NCBI GenBank assembly: GCA_001823545.1 | Contig: MHUV01000002.1 | Location: 1 to 57,206 of the forward strand | Direction of reading: 5' to 3' | From: Candidatus Yonathbacteria bacterium RIFCSPLOWO2_01_FULL_43_27 | GTDB lineage: Bacteria > Patescibacteriota > Minisyncoccia > Phycocordibacterales > UBA1550 | Length of the DNA stretch: 57,206 nucleotides | Shown here: positions 3,360 through 48,786 of the stretch, piece after piece | How positions within the stretch are numbered: the stretch's first letter is position 1 | Layout: every line of letters begins with the position of its first letter | The notes under the pieces: generated by a model | What the model was told of the DNA's origin: nothing | Databases searched by the model: none | What the model saw: the letters and a program-made list of their open reading frames with translations, nothing else | Translations under genes and position numbers: made by a program

Positions 3360-4631
3360 ATGACAACTATCGTTCAAAAATTAAAACTTATTATCGGAGA
3401 CGCAACGCTCAGAAACCGAGTACTTTTTGTTCTTGGTGCGCTTGTTATTTTCCGCTTTTTTGCGAACATCCCAATTCCAGCTGCGCTCGGACAAAATCTC
3501 ACTGCACTCATTTCTCAGAATCAGGCACTTGGCTTCCTTAATCTTTTGACAGGAGGTGGCCTTTCTGCTGTTTCTCTCGTAATGCTTGGTGTTGGCCCCT
3601 ACATTACCGCATCGATTATTATGCAACTTCTTACGATGATGTCGCCAAAATTTAAGGCGATGCACAGTGAGGAAGGGGAATTGGGTCGTCGTAAGTTTAC
3701 TCAATATTCACGTTTACTTTCCGTTCCGCTTGCTATTACCCAAGGGTATGGACTTCTTGCGTACTTGAGCAGTCAGGGTATCCTTCCTGCACTCACACCA
3801 CTTGATTACTTAATCAATGTCTCGATCGTTGTAGGAGGTTCACTTTTCCTTATGTGGATAGGCGAGCTTATATCAGAGTTCGGTATTGGAAACGGTGTTT
3901 CACTGATTATCTTTGCAGGTATCATTGCACAACTCCCTACCACATTAGGACAACTTGTTTTTACGTTTGATGTGTCACAGATTCCTTTATACTTCGGCGC
4001 TCTTGTCGCTATTCTTTTAATTGTGCTCGCGGTGGTGTATATAACCGAAGCAGAGCGTCCGGTTCCTGTTACCTATGCAAAACAGTCGCGTGGGGGAAGA
4101 ACCACTGCTGGTGGAACAACATATCTTCCACTTCGTGTTAATCAGGCAGGCGTTATCCCTATCATCTTTGCGCTTTCAATACTCATTTTCCCTAACGTTA
4201 TTGCAAATGCGCTTGCTTCACTCGGAAATGAATCAGTGCAAGTTATTGCAACGTTTATTAAAGATGCACTCGCAAATATTTGGGTAAATGGCATTTTGTA
4301 CTTTGTCCTTGTTTTCATCTTTACGTATTTCTATACCGCTATCACCTTTGACCCTGACGCAATCGCTACCAACCTTCAAAAGAATGGCGCGTTTGTACCG
4401 GGTATTCGTCCTGGAACACATACTTCAGAATACCTTGCAAGGATTTTGACACGCCTCACACTCGTAGGTGCTGTATTCCTTGGTATCATTGCGGTGTTGC
4501 CACTCATTATGCAGGAGGTTACTAACGTGCAATCGCTTGCAGTTGGTGGTACAGGACTTCTCATCGTGGTGTCGGTAATCCTCGAACTCGTAAAGAAAGT
4601 GGATGCTCAGGTTTCAATGAGAGAATACTAA
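3360..4631 (+). CDS. secY: Preprotein translocase subunit SecY
   Basis: A 423-aa polytopic membrane protein with SecY motifs (LGQNLTALISQNQALGFLNLLTGGGLS...GVGPYITASIIMQLL), sited after L15. Confidence 0.95.
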   Translation: MTTIVQKLKLIIGDATLRNRVLFVLGALVIFRFFANIPIPAALGQNLTALISQNQALGFLNLLTGGGLSAVSLVMLGVGPYITASIIMQLLTMMSPKFKAMHSEEGELGRRKFTQYSRLLSVPLAITQGYGLLAYLSSQGILPALTPLDYLINVSIVVGGSLFLMWIGELISEFGIGNGVSLIIFAGIIAQLPTTLGQLVFTFDVSQIPLYFGALVAILLIVLAVVYITEAERPVPVTYAKQSRGGRTTAGGTTYLPLRVNQAGVIPIIFALSILIFPNVIANALASLGNESVQVIATFIKDALANIWVNGILYFVLVFIFTYFYTAITFDPDAIATNLQKNGAFVPGIRPGTHTSEYLARILTRLTLVGAVFLGIIAVLPLIMQEVTNVQSLAVGGTGLLIVVSVILELVKKVDAQVSMREY

Positions 4632-4648
4632 TTTAATATATTGTTTAC

Positions 4649-4690
4649 GGGGACGAAAAAAGGGAGCTATGGCTCCCTTTTTTCGTCCTC
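4649..4690. terminator. Rho-independent, probably bidirectional, terminator after secY
   Basis: GGGGACGAAAAAAGGGAGC-tat-GCTCCCTTTTTTCGTCCTC is an approximately 18-bp stem with one mismatch. An A-run and a T-run are built into the stem. Confidence 0.7.
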
Positions 4691-4926
4691 TCGGTTAATC
4701 TTCAAGGTAAAATGGGGATAGATACCATTATCATAACTTTTCTGGGTTTCAATATTACCTCATCTAATCATTTTTTGACGTCTCGGAGATTTCAGTGTTG
4801 ATTCAAGATGATTCCTTGATACTCATCTTTTCAACCCATGAGTTGCTGTCATGGGGGACATCCTTGTTTATTAAAACAAAGATCGCGTTGAGATCATCAG
4901 GTTTTTCACAATAATAACCCATTTTA

Positions 4927-4980
4927 TATATAACCCTAACGTATAAAATGCTATAGCATTTTATACGTTAGGGTTATATA
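4927..4980. repeat. 54-bp perfect palindrome in the secY-adk spacer
   Basis: TATATAACCCTAACGTATAAAATGC TATA GCATTTTATACGTTAGGGTTATATA was checked base by base and equals its own reverse complement. Confidence 0.9.
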
Positions 4981-5043
4981 GTTGAAGAATATGTGTGCGG
5001 GGACCACTTGCTCTAAAGGTTAAAAGCTAGTAAGCTGAGCATT

Positions 5044-5643
5044 ATGGACTTACAAACAATCATCTTTATTGGACGCTCTGGTGCGGGCAAAGGGGTTCAG
5101 TCGGCGCTCCTTCAAAAATTTCTCAATGAAAAAACTCCCGACGTTCCCATAATCTATTTTGAGACTGGTCAATATTTTAGAAAGTATATGCAGAGTGGTG
5201 GATACACATGGGATCGCGCGCGGGGTACTATTGTGAAAGGAGAGCGTCAACCTGATTTTCTCGCGGTGTGGATATGGGTAAATAATTTTATAGAAAAAGT
5301 TAAAGGGGGAGAACACCTGATTTTTGATGGTACACCTCGTTCGCTCTGGGAGGCAAAAATGCTTCATACGGCACTTCCTTTTTACGAGAGGATGCGTCCT
5401 ATGGTGATTCACCTAGAAATTTCGCGTGAAGAAGCTGAGAAACGTTTGCGAAATCGAGGGAGAGCTGATGATGTTGACGCTGATGCAATAGAGCGACGAT
5501 TTGCGTGGTATGAGCGTGATGTAGTCCCCGCAGTTGATTTTTACCGCGAGGACACAGCGTACCGTTTTCTTGAAATTAATGGTGAACAATCACCCGAAGA
5601 TGTTCATCAGGAAATCGTAGCGCGTTTGATGAGCGAGAAATAG
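5044..5643 (+). CDS. adk: Adenylate kinase (short type, no LID insertion)
   Basis: P-loop GRSGAGKG. ETGQYFRKYMQSG aligns with the STGDMLR NMP-binding motif. DGTPRS corresponds to DGFPRT. The gene sits after secY, as in the canonical operon. Confidence 0.8.
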   Translation: MDLQTIIFIGRSGAGKGVQSALLQKFLNEKTPDVPIIYFETGQYFRKYMQSGGYTWDRARGTIVKGERQPDFLAVWIWVNNFIEKVKGGEHLIFDGTPRSLWEAKMLHTALPFYERMRPMVIHLEISREEAEKRLRNRGRADDVDADAIERRFAWYERDVVPAVDFYREDTAYRFLEINGEQSPEDVHQEIVARLMSEK

Positions 5644-7772: not shown

Positions 7773-7805
7773 AAAAAGCCCCGCGCAATCTCTGCGCGGG
7801 GCTTG
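7773..7805. terminator. Hairpin terminator between convergent genes
   Basis: AAAAAAGCCCCGCGCA-atctc-TGCGCGGGGCTTGTGTG. An A-run precedes the stem, so a T-run results on the minus strand. Confidence 0.7.
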
Positions 7806-9652: not shown

Positions 9653-9807
9653 CTCCCTGCCTCCCTTAGAGTTTTTATATGATGTGCAATTGTCAAAGAA
9701 CGACAATTTATCCTATATATATTATAGCAAATTTATGTAAAATGTCAATAGTTCAATAAAGGTTAATGGATATTTCTTTCTTTAAGGATTTCATCAGATT
9801 ATTTGTG

Positions 9808-9887
9808 GGCACGGGGAGATTTGAACTCCCAACCCTTGCGGGATGCGCTTCTGAGACGCACGCGTATACCAATTCCGCCACGTGCCC
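9808..9887 (-). tRNA. tRNA-Leu (anticodon CAG), type II with a long variable arm
   Basis: The reverse complement reads GGGCACG-TG-GCGGAATTGGTATACGC-G-TGCGT[CTCAGAA]GCGCA-TCCCGCAAGGGTT-GGGAGTTCAAATCTCCC-CGTGCCC-A. The acceptor pairs fully. The D-arm matches bacterial tRNA-Leu. Confidence 0.8.
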
Positions 9888-10193
9888 ATATTGTATTTGT
9901 ATTGAAGAGGGAAGCGTGTCTATTTTTGTGCCGAGGAGAGGACTCGGTCAAGCGCTCGCTCGTCGTCACCACGTTTTTCGCTCTCTCCCTACAGGAGCAG
10001 TACACCTTTTGGCTCTTTTGTTTCGCCTGCTCACAAAACAGCTTAAAAGGTCTTGCGGAAGCTCCACGTATTCGCTTCCTTACCTGCTTGTGCGACCCAT
10101 CGAGCACGACGGGTACCCGCACTCGCTTTCGAGTCCTCTCCTCCGCCTACAAAATTTAGTTACGAAAAGCTACCACTTTTCGTTTCCAATTTT

Positions 10194-10236
10194 GTGCCGA
10201 GGAGAGGACTCGAACCTCCACAGGTTACCCCTTCCT
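10194..10236 (-). pseudogene. Orphan 3' portion of a Leu-type tRNA (variable arm, T-arm and acceptor 3' strand) with no contiguous 5' half
   Basis: The reverse complement reads ...GGGGTAACCTGTG-GAGGTTCGAGTCCTCT-CCTCGGC-A. It is nearly identical to the 3' part of tRNA-Leu(UAG). No matching GCCGAGG acceptor strand or valid anticodon stem lies in the adjoining 5' sequence. Confidence 0.5.
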
Positions 10237-10343
10237 AATGCCTGTTTCGCGTACGCTCAACAACGGCATTTGCGCATACGCGCACCGGATGAAAATCAAA
10301 GCAGTTTGATTTTCATTCCCGCGTCAGTTCGTCACGCGCAAAG

Positions 10344-10425
10344 TGCTGGGGAGAGGACTCGAACCTCCACAGGTTACCCCGACTGCTCCTAAGGCAGTTG
10401 CGTCTACCAATTTCGCCACCCCAGC
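10344..10425 (-). tRNA. tRNA-Leu (anticodon UAG)
   Basis: The reverse complement reads GCTGGGG-TG-GCGAAATTGGTAGACGC-A-ACTGC[CTTAGGA]GCAGT-CGGGGTAACCTGTG-GGAGGTTCGAGTCCTCT-CCCCAGC-A. Confidence 0.8.
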
Positions 10426-10437
10426 ACTTTAGGCGCG

Positions 10438-10467
10438 ACTTGCGTCTACCAATTTCGCCACCTCGGC
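10438..10467 (-). pseudogene. Orphan 5' portion of a Leu-type tRNA (acceptor 5' strand and D-arm only)
   Basis: The reverse complement reads GCCGAGG-TG-GCGAAATTGGTAGACGCAAG. The D-arm is identical over 21 nt to tRNA-Leu(UAG), then the sequences diverge. Its acceptor GCCGAGG is exactly complementary to the CCTCGGC of the 3' fragment at 10194-10236. Confidence 0.5.
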
Positions 10468-10957
10468 TTCTTCATAACAACTTACACTAAATAACAAGAA
10501 AAAGCGAGTTTTGAGATTGATCTGAATCTCGTTTAGTGACGTTTGTGGTCACAGATAATTTCCTCGCCGTCGCTCGGAAATTTCGCAGTCACAACTTTTT
10601 GCTCGACCGCCGTCTCGCAAAAGTCGCGACCCCTCCTCACTCGTTTTTCTTGCTAGAAAAACGAGTTCCGGCCTTGCGAAGCTCCATGTATTCGCTTCTC
10701 ACCTGGCTCGCTGTTTTGTTTTGCTAAACAAAACATGCTTCGCCTTGCACAAACTAAAAATCTGCCGCAGGCGCTGTTTTTCTTTACGTTTGAATTGCTA
10801 TTTTTGTGGTCACAAGTCACTAAGTCTACTCGTGCGAGTACGCACTGCGTGGACGTAAGTGCTCGCGACCCCGGCTCGTGGTTTTGTGTGCTCACAAAAC
10901 ATCACTGCGCCTTGCACAATGAGAAAATGGTGCGCAGGCACCATTTTCTTTTCATTG

Positions 10958-11030
10958 TGCACCCACCTGGACTCGAACCAGGGACCATCTCCTTAAGAGG
11001 GAGTTGCTCTACCAACTGAGCTATGGATGC
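10958..11030 (-). tRNA. tRNA-Lys (anticodon CUU)
   Basis: The reverse complement reads GCATCCA-TA-GCTCAGTTGGTAGAGC-A-ACTCC[CTCTTAA]GGAGA-TGGTC-CCTGGTTCGAGTCCAGG-TGGGTGC-A. The acceptor has one G-U pair. The anticodon stem has an A-A mismatch at 27-43. Confidence 0.7.
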
Positions 11031-11142
11031 AGACCTATATTCAAAGAGTATACACAAAAATAAAGATTTTGGAAGAGTTTGTGCTTTGAGTTTAATAATT
11101 AGAGGCAAGTAAGATTAACCTAAGTTTTTAAAATACACGAAA

Positions 11143-11205
11143 TCCGTATTAGCTCCTCGGCTCGGAAGTGAGAAAGATTACTTTCTCACTTCACTCGCTC
11201 TACGT
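11143..11205 (+). repeat. Dispersed roughly 60-nt repeat (family A), copy 1; it contains the hairpin GTGAGAAAG-atta-CTTTCTCAC
   Basis: GTATTAGCTCCTCGGCTCGGAAGTGAGAAAGATTACTTTCTCACTTCACTCGCTCTACGT. A near-identical inverted copy lies at 20281-20340. Confidence 0.8.
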
Positions 11206-11243
11206 CGCTAATAATATTGCTCGTAGTTCCTGATTTGTTTAGT

Positions 11244-11324
11244 GGGTCAGGAGGGAATCGAACCCTCAATCCTTTCGGCGGGAAATTTTAAGTTTCCTGT
11301 GTATACCATTCCACCACTGACCCT
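11244..11324 (-). tRNA. tRNA-Leu (anticodon UAA)
   Basis: The reverse complement reads GGGTCAG-TG-GTGGAATGGTATACAC-A-GGAAA[CTTAAAA]TTTCC-CGCCGAAAGGATT-GAGGGTTCGATTCCCTC-CTGACCC-A. Confidence 0.8.
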
Positions 11325-11326
11325 TT

Positions 11327-11803
11327 TTAGGATTTTTTCTTTCGATTAAGTCCTCGATGCGTTGGTTTTAAACTGTGGCAATTTGGACAAAGAATCCGAA
11401 GATTCTCTATTCTGTTGTCTGTTCTGTCCCCATTTATATGGTCAAGCTCAACTGGGATTCTACCATCAATCGACTTTTTCGCCCAGCCACATTCTTCGCA
11501 TTGTGAATTTTTTAAATTATCTTTGAAGAGTCGTCGTTTCAGCTTGTAGCTTTGGAAACGGCTATCTCTCGTAAGGATCTTATTGAGAGGTATGAGTGGC
11601 TTACCGATTCCCTTTAGTCCTTTACTCCATCCAATGCCAGTAAAGTGTTTAATATCCAGACCGTAATCTTTGACGGCATTGTTAATTTGCGCATAATTTC
11701 CTCCTGCCTCTTTTAGATTGAGTTTTTTGAGAACTTGCCGTACGCTTGTAGAGTTTTTAACAGCGACCCTCAATTGTTCTTCTGTCCAACTTCGTTTCCT
11801 CAT
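11327..11803 (-). CDS. HNH endonuclease (homing-endonuclease-like), free-standing within the tRNA island
   Basis: C-terminal ELDHINGDRTDNRIENLRILCPNCH is the classic HNH core, with an additional CEECGW zinc-finger pair. The N-terminal region (WTEEQLRVAVKNSTSVRQVLKKLNL...GGNY) looks like a small DNA-binding module. The start is placed at MRKRSW. The stop lies 3 nt from the tRNA-Leu(UAA) 3' end. Confidence 0.85.
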   Translation of the reverse strand: MRKRSWTEEQLRVAVKNSTSVRQVLKKLNLKEAGGNYAQINNAVKDYGLDIKHFTGIGWSKGLKGIGKPLIPLNKILTRDSRFQSYKLKRRLFKDNLKNSQCEECGWAKKSIDGRIPVELDHINGDRTDNRIENLRILCPNCHSLKPTHRGLNRKKKS

Positions 11804-11914
11804 GCATAAAAGTATACCATAATGGAAGGCATAGAGGAATACATGTACATAGTTGCCTACCTTTTTAATTAAGAAACTCAATTATATTGCAATTCTTTCT
11901 TGAGGCGTGGGCTC

Positions 11915-11980
11915 CTCTCGGTCACGAGTTACTAAGTGTGCTCGGGCGACTACGCCCTGTGCGCACTAAGTACTCTCGAC
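11915..11980 (+). repeat. Dispersed roughly 65-nt repeat (family R), copy 2
   Basis: GTCACGAGTTACTAAGTGTGCTCGGGCGACTACGCCCTGTGCGCACTAAGTACTCTCGACCCGGGCTCG. Its reverse complement recurs at 20641-20705 with a few substitutions. A diverged copy lies at 10806-10877. Confidence 0.8.
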
Positions 11981-12085
11981 CCGGGCTCGCTGTCGCTTTG
12001 CGACATGCTCCGCCTTTCGATTCTCGACGCAGGCAAAGCAGTTTGCCTGCTCCCACGCCAAGAAAATTCTCTAAGAATTTTCTTG

Positions 12086-12157
12086 AGGCGTGGGCGAGAA
12101 TCGAACTCGCGCATAGGGGATTTGCAGTCCCCCGCCTTACCACTTGGCCACCACGCC
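12086..12157 (-). tRNA. tRNA-Cys (anticodon GCA)
   Basis: The reverse complement reads GGCGTGG-TG-GCCAAGTGGTAAGGC-G-GGGGA[CTGCAAA]TCCCC-TATGC-GCGAGTTCGATTCTCGC-CCACGCC-T. The discriminator U73 is the Cys identity element. Confidence 0.85.
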
Positions 12158-20280: not shown

Positions 20281-20340
20281 ACGTAGGACGAGTGGAGTGA
20301 GAAAGTAATCTTTCTCACTCCTGAGTCGAGGAGCTAATAC
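20281..20340 (-). repeat. Family A repeat, copy 2 (inverted), about 95 nt upstream of tRNA-Tyr
   Basis: The reverse complement of 20281-20340 matches 11143-11205 at roughly 90% identity, including the GTGAGAAAG/CTTTCTCAC hairpin. Confidence 0.8.
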
Positions 20341-20435: not shown

Positions 20436-20519
20436 GCGTAGGTGGTAGAGCGGTCAATTACAACAGACTGTAAATCTGTCGCCCATTGGGCTACGCAGGT
20501 TCAAATCCTGCCCTACGCA
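20436..20519 (+). tRNA. tRNA-Tyr (anticodon GUA), type II
   Basis: GCGTAGG-TG-GTAGAGCGGTCAATTAC-A-ACAGA[CTGTAAA]TCTGT-CGCCCATTGGGCT-ACGCAGGTTCAAATCCTGC-CCTACGC-A. Confidence 0.85.
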
Positions 20520-20567
20520 CAATACAAAAAACGCCCCTCAAGGGGCGTTTTTTGTATTGTGCGTAGG
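20512..20567. terminator. Terminator hairpin embedded in a 56-nt perfect palindrome that includes the tRNA-Tyr 3' acceptor strand
   Basis: CCTACGCACAATACAAAAAACGCCCC-tcaa-GGGGCGTTTTTTGTATTGTGCGTAGG. The core hairpin plus T-run is at 20526-20553. Confidence 0.75.
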
Positions 20568-25728: not shown

Positions 25729-25773
25729 GGGGTAAAAACAAGGTCCGCGTTATGCGGACCTTGTTTTTACCCC
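25729..25773. terminator. Perfect 20-bp-stem hairpin terminator upstream of gyrA
   Basis: GGGGTAAAAACAAGGTCCGC-gttat-GCGGACCTTGTTTTTACCCC. Confidence 0.75.
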
Positions 25774-32623: not shown

Positions 32624-32959
32624 ATGAAAAAAATATTAGTGTCGCTAATTACCTTTTGTGCCGTGAGCGTTCCTGGTTCATTCGTTTTTGCTGAGGTGCT
32701 CAAAAATCCTATTAAGTACAACACATTTTCAGCGTTTGTTGCAGCAGTAACCAAGACGGCAGTTCAGGTTCTCATGCCGTTTGTTGTACTCGCATTTATT
32801 TATGCTGGGTTTTTGTTTGTGAAAGCGCAAGGAAATGATAAGACGTTAGGCGAAGCCAAGAAAGCGATGACATGGAGCGTGGTCGGAGCCCTCATTCTTT
32901 TTGGTGCATGGGGTTTTGCAGAGATGATTGGCAAAACTGTTGAGACATTTACTAAGTAA
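32624..32959 (+). CDS. Putative VirB2/TrbC-like pilin paralog 2
   Basis: MKKILVSLITFCAVSVPGSFVFA signal peptide. Helix, then loop KAQGNDKTLGEAKKAM, then helix WSVVGALILFGAWGFAEMIGKTV. Confidence 0.45.
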   Translation: MKKILVSLITFCAVSVPGSFVFAEVLKNPIKYNTFSAFVAAVTKTAVQVLMPFVVLAFIYAGFLFVKAQGNDKTLGEAKKAMTWSVVGALILFGAWGFAEMIGKTVETFTK

Positions 32960-32973
32960 CCTCATTATACTTT

Positions 32974-33396
32974 ATGAACATTGCTAAAAAAGTTTTTTCG
33001 ATAAGTTTAGTTGGGGTTCCTTCCGTTACTCTTGCGGCAGTGAATATTGGTACGCTTGATTTTAAAGGTCTTGTTGCGTATGTTCTTGAGGATTTTATTA
33101 AACCGATAACGGTAGTTATTCTTTCTTTGGCGGTAGTATATTTTCTTTGGAATATTTTTAATATAATTCGTGCGAGTAAAAAAGGGGAGGAACTTGCTGA
33201 CCTTAAAAGTAAAGCGTTGTGGGGGGTTATCGCTATTTTTGTAATGGTATCAATGTGGGGGCTCGTGAGTATTTTGGTAAACACACTTGCGCCAGGGGCA
33301 GGTATCCCTGTGGGGGGTGGTCCGGCAAACATTAACTTTAGTGGTTTTGATAATGAGGGTACGAGTACAGGAGGGGTTAAAAATTTTTTGAAGTAA
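32974..33396 (+). CDS. Putative VirB2/TrbC-like pilin paralog 3 (Gly-rich C-terminal tail)
   Basis: Signal peptide. Helix, then loop RASKKGEELADLKSKA, then helix LWGVIAIFVMVSMWGLVSILVNTLAPG. Confidence 0.45.
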   Translation: MNIAKKVFSISLVGVPSVTLAAVNIGTLDFKGLVAYVLEDFIKPITVVILSLAVVYFLWNIFNIIRASKKGEELADLKSKALWGVIAIFVMVSMWGLVSILVNTLAPGAGIPVGGGPANINFSGFDNEGTSTGGVKNFLK

Positions 33397-33493
33397 CTAT
33401 ACGGAGTCCTTGCCCTTTCGGGGTGGGTTTTATATAATTACCTAAAGACAAAATTAACGTCTGAATAATTATTAGTTAATAGTTTATACATAT

Positions 33494-33838
33494 ATGAAAA
33501 AAGTTATTGCACTTGGTTTAGCGCTTGCTCCTTCGTTTGCTTTTGCGGCAATTACAGACGTAAATAGCATTCTTAGTTTTGCTATGTCGCTCTTGAACTC
33601 AGCTACGGTGCTTATTATGGCGGCAGCGGTAGTATGGTTTCTTATTGGCGTGTTCCAGTTTATCAAAGCTGCGGGTGACGCAGCAGGAAAATCTGAGGGA
33701 CGTAACAAAATAATCTACGGTATCGTTGGTCTTGCTGTGATGGCTTCGGTATATGGTCTCGTAAATATTTTGGTTAACACCGTAGGTCCTGACAATAGAC
33801 CGATTACCCCACCTTCACTCCCCATACTTCCTCGATAA
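33494..33838 (+). CDS. Putative VirB2/TrbC-like pilin paralog 4
   Basis: MKKVIALGLALAPSFAFA signal peptide. Helix, then loop KAAGDAAGKSEGRNK, then helix IIYGIVGLAVMASVYGLVNILVNTVGPD. Confidence 0.45.
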   Translation: MKKVIALGLALAPSFAFAAITDVNSILSFAMSLLNSATVLIMAAAVVWFLIGVFQFIKAAGDAAGKSEGRNKIIYGIVGLAVMASVYGLVNILVNTVGPDNRPITPPSLPILPR

Positions 33839-34113: not shown

Positions 34114-34127
34114 AGAACGTTAGTGAG

Positions 34128-34179
34128 CTACAAACATAAAAGCGAGAATTCGTTAGAATTCTCGCTTTTATGTTTGTAG
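34128..34179. terminator. Long perfect-palindrome bidirectional terminator between the pilin array and tmk
   Basis: CTACAAACATAAAAGCGAGAATTC-gtta-GAATTCTCGCTTTTATGTTTGTAG (24-bp arms). Confidence 0.8.
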
Positions 34180-34184
34180 CGTCA

Positions 34185-41470: not shown

Positions 41471-41482
41471 AGATTGTTTACT

Positions 41483-41520
41483 AGCGGTGCGCCAATTACT
41501 ATAGTAATTGGCGCACCGCT
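41483..41520. terminator. Perfect 38-bp palindrome hairpin after rpsR
   Basis: AGCGGTGCGCCAATTACTA/TAGTAATTGGCGCACCGCT. Confidence 0.7.
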
Positions 41521-41555
41521 ATTTATTGAAACAGGACGAATTAATACAAAATATT

Positions 41556-47823: not shown

Positions 47824-47990
47824 GGAACCTGCGGAATGCTATATAATATATGGCATTTTGAATTAAAAGTCAATGGTAGCGTTTGTCGTTGATGGAAGGA
47901 GGAAGGGAGTAGAAAAATGTGTTTGAGGCGAGTTTTTTGATTGTTTTAGGATGGTGAATGAAAATAGAATAAATATTATGCTTTAAAAAC

Positions 47991-48102
47991 TTGACTTTTT
48001 CGTAATATTTGTTATATTGTATGTATGTGAGTGCGCGAGGGCAACCTCGGGCGATTCAACAAACGAATGTCTGCAAAAACCTCCGCGCAAGCGGAGTTTT
48101 TT
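47991..48102 (+). ncRNA. Candidate small RNA: a sigma-70-like promoter followed about 75 nt later by an intrinsic terminator, divergent from infC
   Basis: TTGACT (47991-47996), a 16-nt spacer, then TATATT (48013-48018). Then GUGAGUGCGCGAGGGCAACCUCGGGCG... ends in CTCCGC-gcaa-GCGGAG plus T6 (48081-48102). No ORF follows. Confidence 0.4.
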
Positions 48103-48254
48103 GTTTCTGTTTTTTCTTGGTATGTTTTGCTATACTCTTAATAAAGTTCCTGTGTTCTTTTGACTAGCGACTGCACTCACATATTTAGACATTTGTTGGA
48201 GTTCGCACTCGCTAGTCAAAAGAGTACGGGAAAAATATTTACATAAAGAATTAT

Positions 48255-48293
48255 AAAAAATTGCGCACAGATATCTGTGCGCAATTATTTTTT
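48255..48293. terminator. Perfect 28-bp palindrome flanked by an A-run and a T-run (bidirectional terminator)
   Basis: AAAAAATTGCGCACAGAT/ATCTGTGCGCAATTATTTTTT. Confidence 0.75.
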
Positions 48294-48414
48294 AATACGT
48301 GTACATTAAAATTATTTTTTAATTAATAAAAAATATTGAGAAATAAAATTAATTAATTTTTTATTTTTTTATTTTGTAAAAATATTTTAATAAATTTTTT
48401 TTACAAAAAAAAGT

Positions 48415-48423
48415 TATCCACAG
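48415..48423 (+). promoter_or_regulatory. Single consensus DnaA box inside a tract of about 90% AT
   Basis: TTATCCACA is an exact match to the DnaA-box consensus. The surrounding tract at 48300-48480 is almost entirely A/T. Confidence 0.3.
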
Positions 48424-48643
48424 TTTTTTTACAAAAAAGTATTGTAAATGATTTTCATATGCGTGATAATAATAGTAGATCAGTACACAGAGTATGAAAA
48501 ATATTTTCATACACGAATGATCCAATGATCAAACATGACAACACATTTTATTTTAATATATGTTGTCGGTCGAAGATTATTGTAAAAAATAATTTGCATA
48601 CAAATGTACATACATACGTGTATGTACATACGTACATAAAACA

Positions 48644-48715
48644 ATGGCAGCAAAAAAGAAGGCAAAGAAGGCAGCAAAGAAAGTAGCAAAGAAAGCAGCT
48701 AAGAAGCGCAAATAG
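48644..48715 (+). CDS. 23-codon micro-ORF encoding a Lys/Ala-only peptide (MAAKKKAKKAAKKVAKKAAKKRK), followed by a terminator
   Basis: Read directly from the sequence. A hairpin (AACCGCCC-cag-GGCGGTT plus T-run) lies at 48743-48765. There is no obvious Shine-Dalgarno. It could instead be the 5' region of an RNA. Confidence 0.3.
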   Translation: MAAKKKAKKAAKKVAKKAAKKRK

Positions 48716-48786
48716 TTTTTCAAGCACATAGTGTGCAGCAATAACCGCCCCAGGGCGGTTTTTGTTTTTTCCAGAGAAGCCTTACG

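Follow-up and report, generated by a model that had tools for sequence, protein, structure and literature searches.

A clade-specific hairpin module with a 54-bp perfect palindrome inserted between secY and adk in a Parcubacteria genome

The window, meaning the whole stretch of 57,206 nucleotides analyzed here, includes the genes secY (3360–4631; PF00344) and adk (5044–5643; PF00406), followed by map, as an earlier note on this DNA had described. Clusters containing its Adk protein and a short open reading frame from the secY-adk spacer (ORF39, described below) carry the NCBI names Candidatus Yonathbacteria RIFCSPLOWO2_01_FULL and 'Azambacteria' GW2011_GWA1_44_9, which are Parcubacteria (CPR) from Rifle groundwater. 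The secY gene is followed by an intrinsic terminator of the bidirectional type (4651–4688, plus strand) with a 17-bp perfect stem. The strong terminator that had been proposed at 4649–4690 is real, and it is conserved in all ten lineages, where 94.7% of the alignment cells are paired and two compensatory double changes are seen. On the other side of the spacer, adk is preceded by a leader (5007–5043, plus strand; CTTGCTCTAAAGGTTAAAAGCTAGTAAGCT…ATG) that is present in every relative and directly abuts the terminator wherever the DNA described below is absent. The same leader block (CTTGCYCTAAAGRYYAAAARCTAGTAAGCT) is kept down to 71% adk nucleotide identity. It lacks a good Shine-Dalgarno sequence and holds a small AGCU-AGUA-AGCU hairpin, and it may represent the real adk promoter or leader. 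The 412-bp distance between the two genes was noticed earlier as unusually long, and this impression holds, given that the corresponding spacer measures 88–104 bp in eight relatives.

Within this spacer lies a 54-bp perfect palindrome (4927–4980, no assigned strand), whose 27-nt arms (4927–4953 and 4954–4980) are 100% complementary with no nucleotides between them, exactly as first reported. As a single strand, it can form a 25-bp stem capped by a TATA loop. The predicted RNA fold, with the same 25-bp stem and 4-nt loop, has a free energy of -34.8 kcal/mol (z = -12), and the DNA fold has a value of -23.8 kcal/mol. The arms are poor in GC (0.26), and the apical part is a weak 4-bp segment (AUGC-UAUA-GCAU). 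The earlier claim that such a structure is unlikely to arise by chance also stands. In twenty first-order Markov simulations of the window, the longest perfect arm reached only 8–11 nt, and the observed arm was matched in none of 100 shuffles. A search of Rfam returned sub-threshold matches to eukaryotic miRNA precursors only (no more than 36 bits, versus gathering scores of 56–245), which we regard as generic artefacts produced by long hairpins.

An identical 412-bp spacer is present in at least eight contigs from different samples, produced by SPAdes, MEGAHIT and JGI assemblies. Logan contigs, which are built with k=31, stop at positions 4951 and 4956, the points at which a perfect palindrome forces a de Bruijn graph to turn back on itself. 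This base-for-base agreement between independent assemblies, together with the fold-back ends of the Logan contigs, demonstrates that the palindrome is real, and an assembly artefact is ruled out.

The window otherwise encodes ordinary CPR housekeeping genes. No transposase, integrase, HUH or protelomerase gene was found in its 57 kb, and no gene for a regulator or transcription factor was found in the window near the palindrome. Its only mobile-type gene, 6 kb away from the palindrome, is an ORF for an HNH endonuclease (11330–11881, minus strand; PF13392/PF01844), which lies inside a cluster of five minus-strand tRNA genes (9805–12157) and may encode a free-standing homing-type nuclease. At the edge of the same cluster, a plus-strand ORF of 208 codons (9766–10392) has no Pfam match and overlaps the minus-strand tRNA-Leu genes at 9805–9887 and 10343–10425, and so is probably spurious. 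Also in this region is one copy of a two-copy compound hairpin repeat (11165–11192 and 20294–20321) of the form G[AG]AGTGAGAAAG-4 nt-CTTTCTCACT[TC]C, with ATTAGC … GCTAAT flanking each copy. Both copies are non-coding and reside beside tRNA genes (one in the tRNA-Lys/tRNA-Leu cluster and the other upstream of tRNA-Tyr), and the pair has the look of a small palindromic repeat of the dispersed type, with no relation to the 54-bp palindrome. Farther along, small ORFs resembling T4SS pilins occur at 32624–33835, and a 963-bp AT-rich non-coding gap (47824–48786; GC 0.33) carries palindromes or inverted repeats at 48140–48239, 48255–48290 and 48368–48412. This gap is located upstream of a 935-aa ORF with a weak match to a T4SS coupling protein.

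The secY-adk region was recovered from ten other lineages by using Adk homologues. In eight of these (L026, L029, L012, L028, L022, L025, L023 and L024), whose adk genes range from 94.5% down to 71% nucleotide identity with that of the window, the site is empty. There, the conserved adk leader begins immediately after the terminator (…CCCTTTTTTCGTCC^CTTGCTCTAAAGG…, where the caret marks the junction). Because the terminator abuts the leader in all eight relatives, the window must carry a clean insertion of 316 bp (4691–5006, no assigned strand) relative to an empty site of the form …TTTTTTCGTCC^CTTGCTCTAAAGG…, and the comparison thus establishes both the polarity of the change and its exact junctions. 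The insert begins 2 nt past the end of the secY terminator and finishes where the ancestral leader begins. We found neither a target-site duplication nor terminal inverted repeats for the 316-bp insert, and the flanking bases are all kept. One candidate pair of terminal repeats (4696–4705 and 4982–4991; 10 nt, 90% identity) has unequal offsets from the two ends and was treated as a chance match. The possibility that the right end of the insert was copied from DNA located just upstream of the secY terminator (ATATTGTTTACGGGGAC vs ATATGTGTGCGGGGAC) was likewise rejected. For this pair, 46 of 1000 shuffles attained the local alignment score of 17, and other parts of the window score higher.

Outside the window, the palindrome is present in two lineages only. 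One of these (L027) has an adk gene with 99% nucleotide identity to that of the window, and its right arm, including the TATATA segment, is identical; its Logan contig breaks at the center of the palindrome. The other (L021; JGI 3300038404 Ga0393997) is more distant, with 92.7% nucleotide identity in adk and about 92.5–93% identity overall. Its insert is only 188 bp long and is located at the same nucleotide position, with the same junctions, as the insert in the window. The three carriers fall into one clade with 200/200 bootstrap support. The window, L021 and the empty-site lineage L026 also form a clade with 200/200 support, within which the branching order is split among 78, 75 and 47 of 200 replicates. 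The history of the insert is consequently either one gain followed by one loss in L026, or one or more gains inside the clade. Lineage L026 has ten extra nucleotides exactly at the insert position (2494–2510; TTTTTTCGTg TTTTTTCATc CCTTGC), which could be a tandem duplication or the deletion scar of an L021-type insert, and both origins explain these nucleotides equally well.

Only a small portion of the inserted DNA is common to the window and L021. In BLAST alignments of the two, homology is lost at 4688, which is the end of the terminator, and is regained at 4923. The shared portion consists of a 42-bp palindrome core (4933–4974, no assigned strand; ACCCTAACGTATAAAATGC TATA GCATTTTATACGTTAGGGT), which is 100% identical in L021, and the 26 nt to its right. 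This right flank of the insert (4981–5006, plus strand; GTTGAAGAATATGTGTGCGGGGACCA) is identical in L021, carries one substitution in L027, and ends precisely at the ancestral junction with the adk leader (…ACCA^CTTGCTC). There are no differences between the window and L021 in the core, nor in the 40 nt past the outer arm (4981–5020), whereas four-fold degenerate sites of secY, adk and map have diverged by 22% between them. Counting the palindrome as 21 independent nucleotides only, the probability of observing no differences is ~2e-7 at this neutral rate and ~0.006 at the average rate of 8%. All differences in the module are confined to the outer arms. The outer 6 bp on each side of the core (TATATA/TATATA) add six more symmetric base pairs and are specific to the window and L027, whereas the corresponding nucleotides in L021 (TGTATG/GTATTT) are unpaired.

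The remainder of the insert has a different character. The left part in the window (4691–4922, no assigned strand; 232 bp) has no homology to the left part in L021 (2776–2878; 103 bp), which places the palindrome at the boundary between conserved and completely non-homologous portions of the insert. No homologue of either left part was found in the rest of the window, the fetched loci, phages, plasmids or viral contigs; six plasmid matches at E = 1 span just 25–49 nt and are attributable to chance. Gene finders called a 39-aa ORF here (ORF39; 4803–4922, minus strand) that starts 5 nt from the palindrome. Among 5.8 billion proteins, its only match is itself, and Pfam and PHROG provided no match. 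ORF39 always appears in one and the same context, has no counterpart in L021 and is preceded by a poor ribosome-binding site, and we conclude that it is probably not a gene. An overlapping 39-codon ORF on the plus strand (4795–4914) begins with GTG, has a GGAGA sequence 6 nt upstream, and ends with a double stop 12 nt before the palindrome. Neither this ORF nor any other open frame of at least 18 aa in the left parts of the window and L021 has a homologue, and the idea that the insert is the remnant of a known gene is unsupported. The only sigma-70-like match near the palindrome (4888–4915, plus strand; TTGAGA-16-AATAAT, 10 of 12 positions) resides in the window-specific portion of the insert. 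It faces the palindrome and adk, stopping 12 nt short of the former. Promoter-like matches in this region are no more common than in shuffled sequences, and the sigma-70-like match is absent in L021.

These findings indicate that the palindrome is a clade-specific inserted hairpin module and not a conserved regulatory site. We favor, with a probability of roughly 40%, a model in which the insertion is young and the part that has been under selection is a long hairpin, similar to the many hairpins in this genome that resemble terminators or insulators. The insertion would have occurred at the exact boundary of the secY terminator and the adk leader, either in the ancestor of a tight Yonathbacteria/Parcubacteria clade or soon afterward. 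Its conserved part would then have been retained as a nucleic-acid hairpin belonging to the same class as the long gene-end hairpins of this genome. Transcripts of either strand are predicted to form a stem of 19–25 bp that leads into a U/A-rich tail (in the window, UUAUAUAGUU; in L021, GUAUUUAGUU). Such a stem might stop or cap transcripts that leak past the secY terminator or that start inside the insert, and it would also insulate the ribosomal protein operon from the adk-map unit.

Long perfect hairpins are numerous in the window. A total of 19 have arms of 12–27 nt (with a cutoff of at least 12), compared to a chance maximum of 8–11, and thus very long perfect hairpins seem to be normal in this genome. 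Several of them span 40–56 bp, and most are intergenic, are positioned at the ends of protein or tRNA genes, and have A-rich 5′ and T-rich 3′ feet. Examples include those located after tRNA-Tyr (20512–20567), at 25729–25773, between convergent genes (34127–34180), and after rpsR (41482–41521), the last of which has a CTATAG center with no spacer. Most of the 19 resemble bidirectional terminators, with an A-tract on one side and a T-tract on the other. Bona fide hairpins of the clade also exhibit the same conservation of their stems. For example, the stems of the terminator at 7776–7804 are identical in the window, L021 and L022, and the loop and flank alone differ.

Several other observations are consistent with retention as a terminator-like or insulator-like hairpin. 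The distribution fits, with eight empty-site lineages and all three carriers in a single 200/200 clade, and the core and flank are invariant between the window and L021 despite the 22% divergence at four-fold sites. A consensus scan flagged the L021 version as terminator-like, with 19 pairs and a T-rich tail (GTATTTAGTT). Signs of mobility were not seen: the module is present as a single copy in the 57 kb and in all fetched loci, Logan contigs cross its right flank and break at the palindrome only, and phages, plasmids and viral contigs yielded no match. Other features dampen our enthusiasm for this model. The stem is AT-rich and its apical part is weak. The version in the window has no canonical U-tract (after the 42-bp core, the tail reads TATATAGTT) and was not flagged by the terminator scan. 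A strong terminator already exists 240 bp upstream, and the sole predicted promoter able to drive transcription into the hairpin has no conserved counterpart in L021. Moreover, the model requires a second event to account for left DNA that is unrelated in two lineages even though both junctions are common to them.

The earlier note had listed an operator for a dimeric regulator or a cruciform upstream of adk-map among its candidates. In this explanation, which we judge to be very improbable, the palindrome binds a dimeric or tetrameric regulator, or acts as a cruciform-dependent site, at a promoter for adk-map or for the divergent ORF39. Its dyad symmetry is perfect, it precedes adk and directly adjoins the upstream side of the minus-strand ORF39, its core is strongly conserved between two lineages, and a sigma-70-like match ends just before it. 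However, the palindrome is absent in 8 of the 11 lineages, all of which keep the adk leader. The operator hypothesis fails this comparative test because the leader is the same with or without the palindrome. The palindrome is not an ancestral regulatory site of adk. The absence from close relatives that had been put forward as a way to refute a local regulatory role was indeed found, but the spacers are not otherwise identical, as that proposal had envisioned, and the whole insert is missing as well. An unbroken symmetry of 42–54 bp also far exceeds what a dimer operator needs, promoter-like matches are not enriched and none falls in the TATATA arms where a -10 element had been suspected, ORF39 is an ORFan that L021 lacks and that is poorly equipped for translation, and no gene for a DNA-binding regulator is nearby. 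Thus, the operator interpretation is mostly not supported. The other two suggestions made at the outset, a recombination site or a remnant inverted repeat, are still viable given the location of the palindrome at the boundary between conserved and non-homologous DNA. A dispersed repeat, which had been raised as well, would predict many copies, and this is not borne out, as no second copy exists in the 57 kb or in the 29 fetched loci. In a further explanation, the palindrome is a functionless by-product: replication template switching or fold-back repair created an inverted duplication in one step within junk DNA acquired by illegitimate recombination, the palindrome persists through the organism's tolerance of palindromes, and the identity between lineages reflects recent exchange. 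Template switching is known to generate perfect hairpins in one step (bioRxiv 10.1101/2023.04.19.537475), and the rest of the insert has no recognizable function or homologue. In addition, where the window and L021 differ, the changes are concentrated at the foot of the hairpin, where six symmetric base pairs were gained by the former or lost by the latter. We nevertheless consider this explanation improbable. Zero substitutions in 82 nt, against a neutral divergence of 22%, call for selection or very recent transfer, divergence limited to the outer arms is not what a recent transfer would produce, and the right flank outside the palindrome is equally invariant. A neutral origin explains the perfect symmetry but fails to account for a core, and a right flank outside the palindrome, that are both invariant.

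The remaining alternative, to which we assign a lesser but real chance, is that the 84-bp module (4923–5006) is the conserved terminus by which an enzyme recognizes a small, non-autonomous element of a mobile or cassette-like kind, and that this element inserts site-specifically, with no target duplication, where the foot of the terminator (…CGTCC) meets CTTG. Under this scheme, the inserts of the window and L021 would be two different members of one element, or two outcomes of cargo exchange, and a transposase or recombinase acting in trans would recognize the hairpin in single-stranded DNA, in the manner of HUH-type IS91 or IS200/IS605 ends. This alternative explains most directly how two unrelated inserts came to have both junctions in common, since the left parts differ completely and yet share the left junction (with a 2-nt ambiguity) and the right end. 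The lack of a target duplication fits, as does a mosaic pattern in which the end is kept and the interior is unrelated, as in IS families. The same is true of the patchy presence in the trichotomy clade, where the empty site of L026 implies one loss or two gains. Members of the IS91 family insert adjacent to a CTTG, GTTC or GTCC tetranucleotide without target duplication, carry subterminal palindromes, require only a right end of ~82 bp for function, and can have a variable far end as a result of one-ended transposition (PMC13181058). The insert in the window ends with …ACCA^CTTG and is preceded by GTCC. The ends of known HUH elements are short, imperfect hairpins, and the perfect hairpin of 42–54 bp described here is unlike them. 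Furthermore, a hairpin is present at one end only, and terminal inverted repeats are lacking. A second copy was not seen in the 57 kb of this genome or in 29 loci, the window encodes no transposase, integrase or HUH protein, and searches of phage, plasmid and viral collections gave no match. The Logan graphs do not branch at the edge of the module, nor do their contigs stop there, which suggests that the flank is single-copy in those samples. The sample also amounts to two inserts at one locus. Overall, there is a minority chance that the palindrome marks an undescribed mobile element of CPR bacteria. A more specific proposal is that the 42-bp palindrome and the 26-nt flank constitute the recognition end of an undescribed CPR mobile or cassette-exchanging element, which homes to the gap between a terminator and a gene (…GTCC^CTTG…) and swaps its cargos at the hairpin by an HUH-like process that leaves no target duplication. 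This specific scheme is unlikely.

A striking palindrome in front of adk has the look of an operator, but comparison with relatives shows that one small clade gained it recently as a passenger and that it plays no part in spc/adk control. If it is a selected terminator or insulator, then the locus demonstrates the fast gain and fixation of new structured intergenic DNA in reduced CPR genomes. Should it prove to be one end of an element with site-specific insertion, then it would be among the very few mobile-element signatures described in Parcubacteria, and one of an unusual type, in that its hairpin is long and perfect, its target is not duplicated, and that target adjoins a terminator.

Comparisons with known systems place the module near several classes. 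Like REP/BIME sequences, MITEs and Correia-type elements, it is a short intergenic sequence that can form a hairpin and is located just past a terminator; unlike these repeats, it has no further copy in the 57 kb even when 3 mismatches are allowed, and it has neither terminal inverted repeats nor a target duplication. Integron attC sites and their cassettes similarly have a palindromic site beside interchangeable short DNA that bears ORFs. The putative core sites GTTAGGG/CCCTAAC match the GTTRRRY/RYYYAAC consensus at 6 of 7 positions but fail at the R/Y end position. The pairing in our palindrome is 100%, with no extrahelical bases or unpaired central spacer, and the site is single, with no array or integrase in the window. 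Targets of protelomerases are perfect palindromes of ~42–56 bp that are accompanied by a protelomerase gene and a hairpin-ended replicon. The length of our palindrome fits this description, but contigs read through it in at least eight assemblies and the window has no such gene, and we rejected this assignment. The telRL site of phage N15 presumably has a TATAC/TATAA motif in common with the palindrome, but in a different register relative to the center. A dif/Xer site, which is ~28 bp long with an asymmetric center of 6–8 bp and lies at the replication terminus, was also rejected, as the symmetry is unbroken over 54 bp with no central spacer and the GC skew does not turn at 4.9 kb.

The similarity to the ends of IS91 and IS200/IS605 elements and their PATE derivatives lies in a palindrome positioned ~26 nt from the end and in a conserved end of ~84 bp joined to an unrelated interior. 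In IS91 elements, oriIS has one or more imperfect subterminal palindromes, and terIS has a second palindrome together with CTCG/GTTC. As at an oriIS end, the insert lacks a target duplication and lies beside a CTTG that may have the orientation of an oriIS-type end (…CGTCC^insert^CTTGCTC…). Its left end begins with TCTCGG, which contains CTCG, but forms no hairpin, and the left end in L021 is different. The palindrome also departs from HUH hairpin ends by being perfect and 2–3 times longer, and by occurring at one end only; neither an HUH transposase nor further copies were seen in the 57-kb window or the fetched loci.

The final comparison is with the bidirectional terminator hairpins of the same genome. 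The palindrome differs from these in that its stem is far more AT-rich and, in the window, lacks a clean U-tract, and in that it follows only short ORFan ORFs and no recognizable gene, and is carried on a lineage-specific insert below a strong terminator, the one conserved after secY. It shares with them a perfect stem of more than 19 bp, a 4-nt loop, A/U-rich feet, an intergenic location and an invariant stem. Within its own genome, the palindrome is therefore unusual mainly in its low GC content (0.26) and its position, rather than in its length or conservation.
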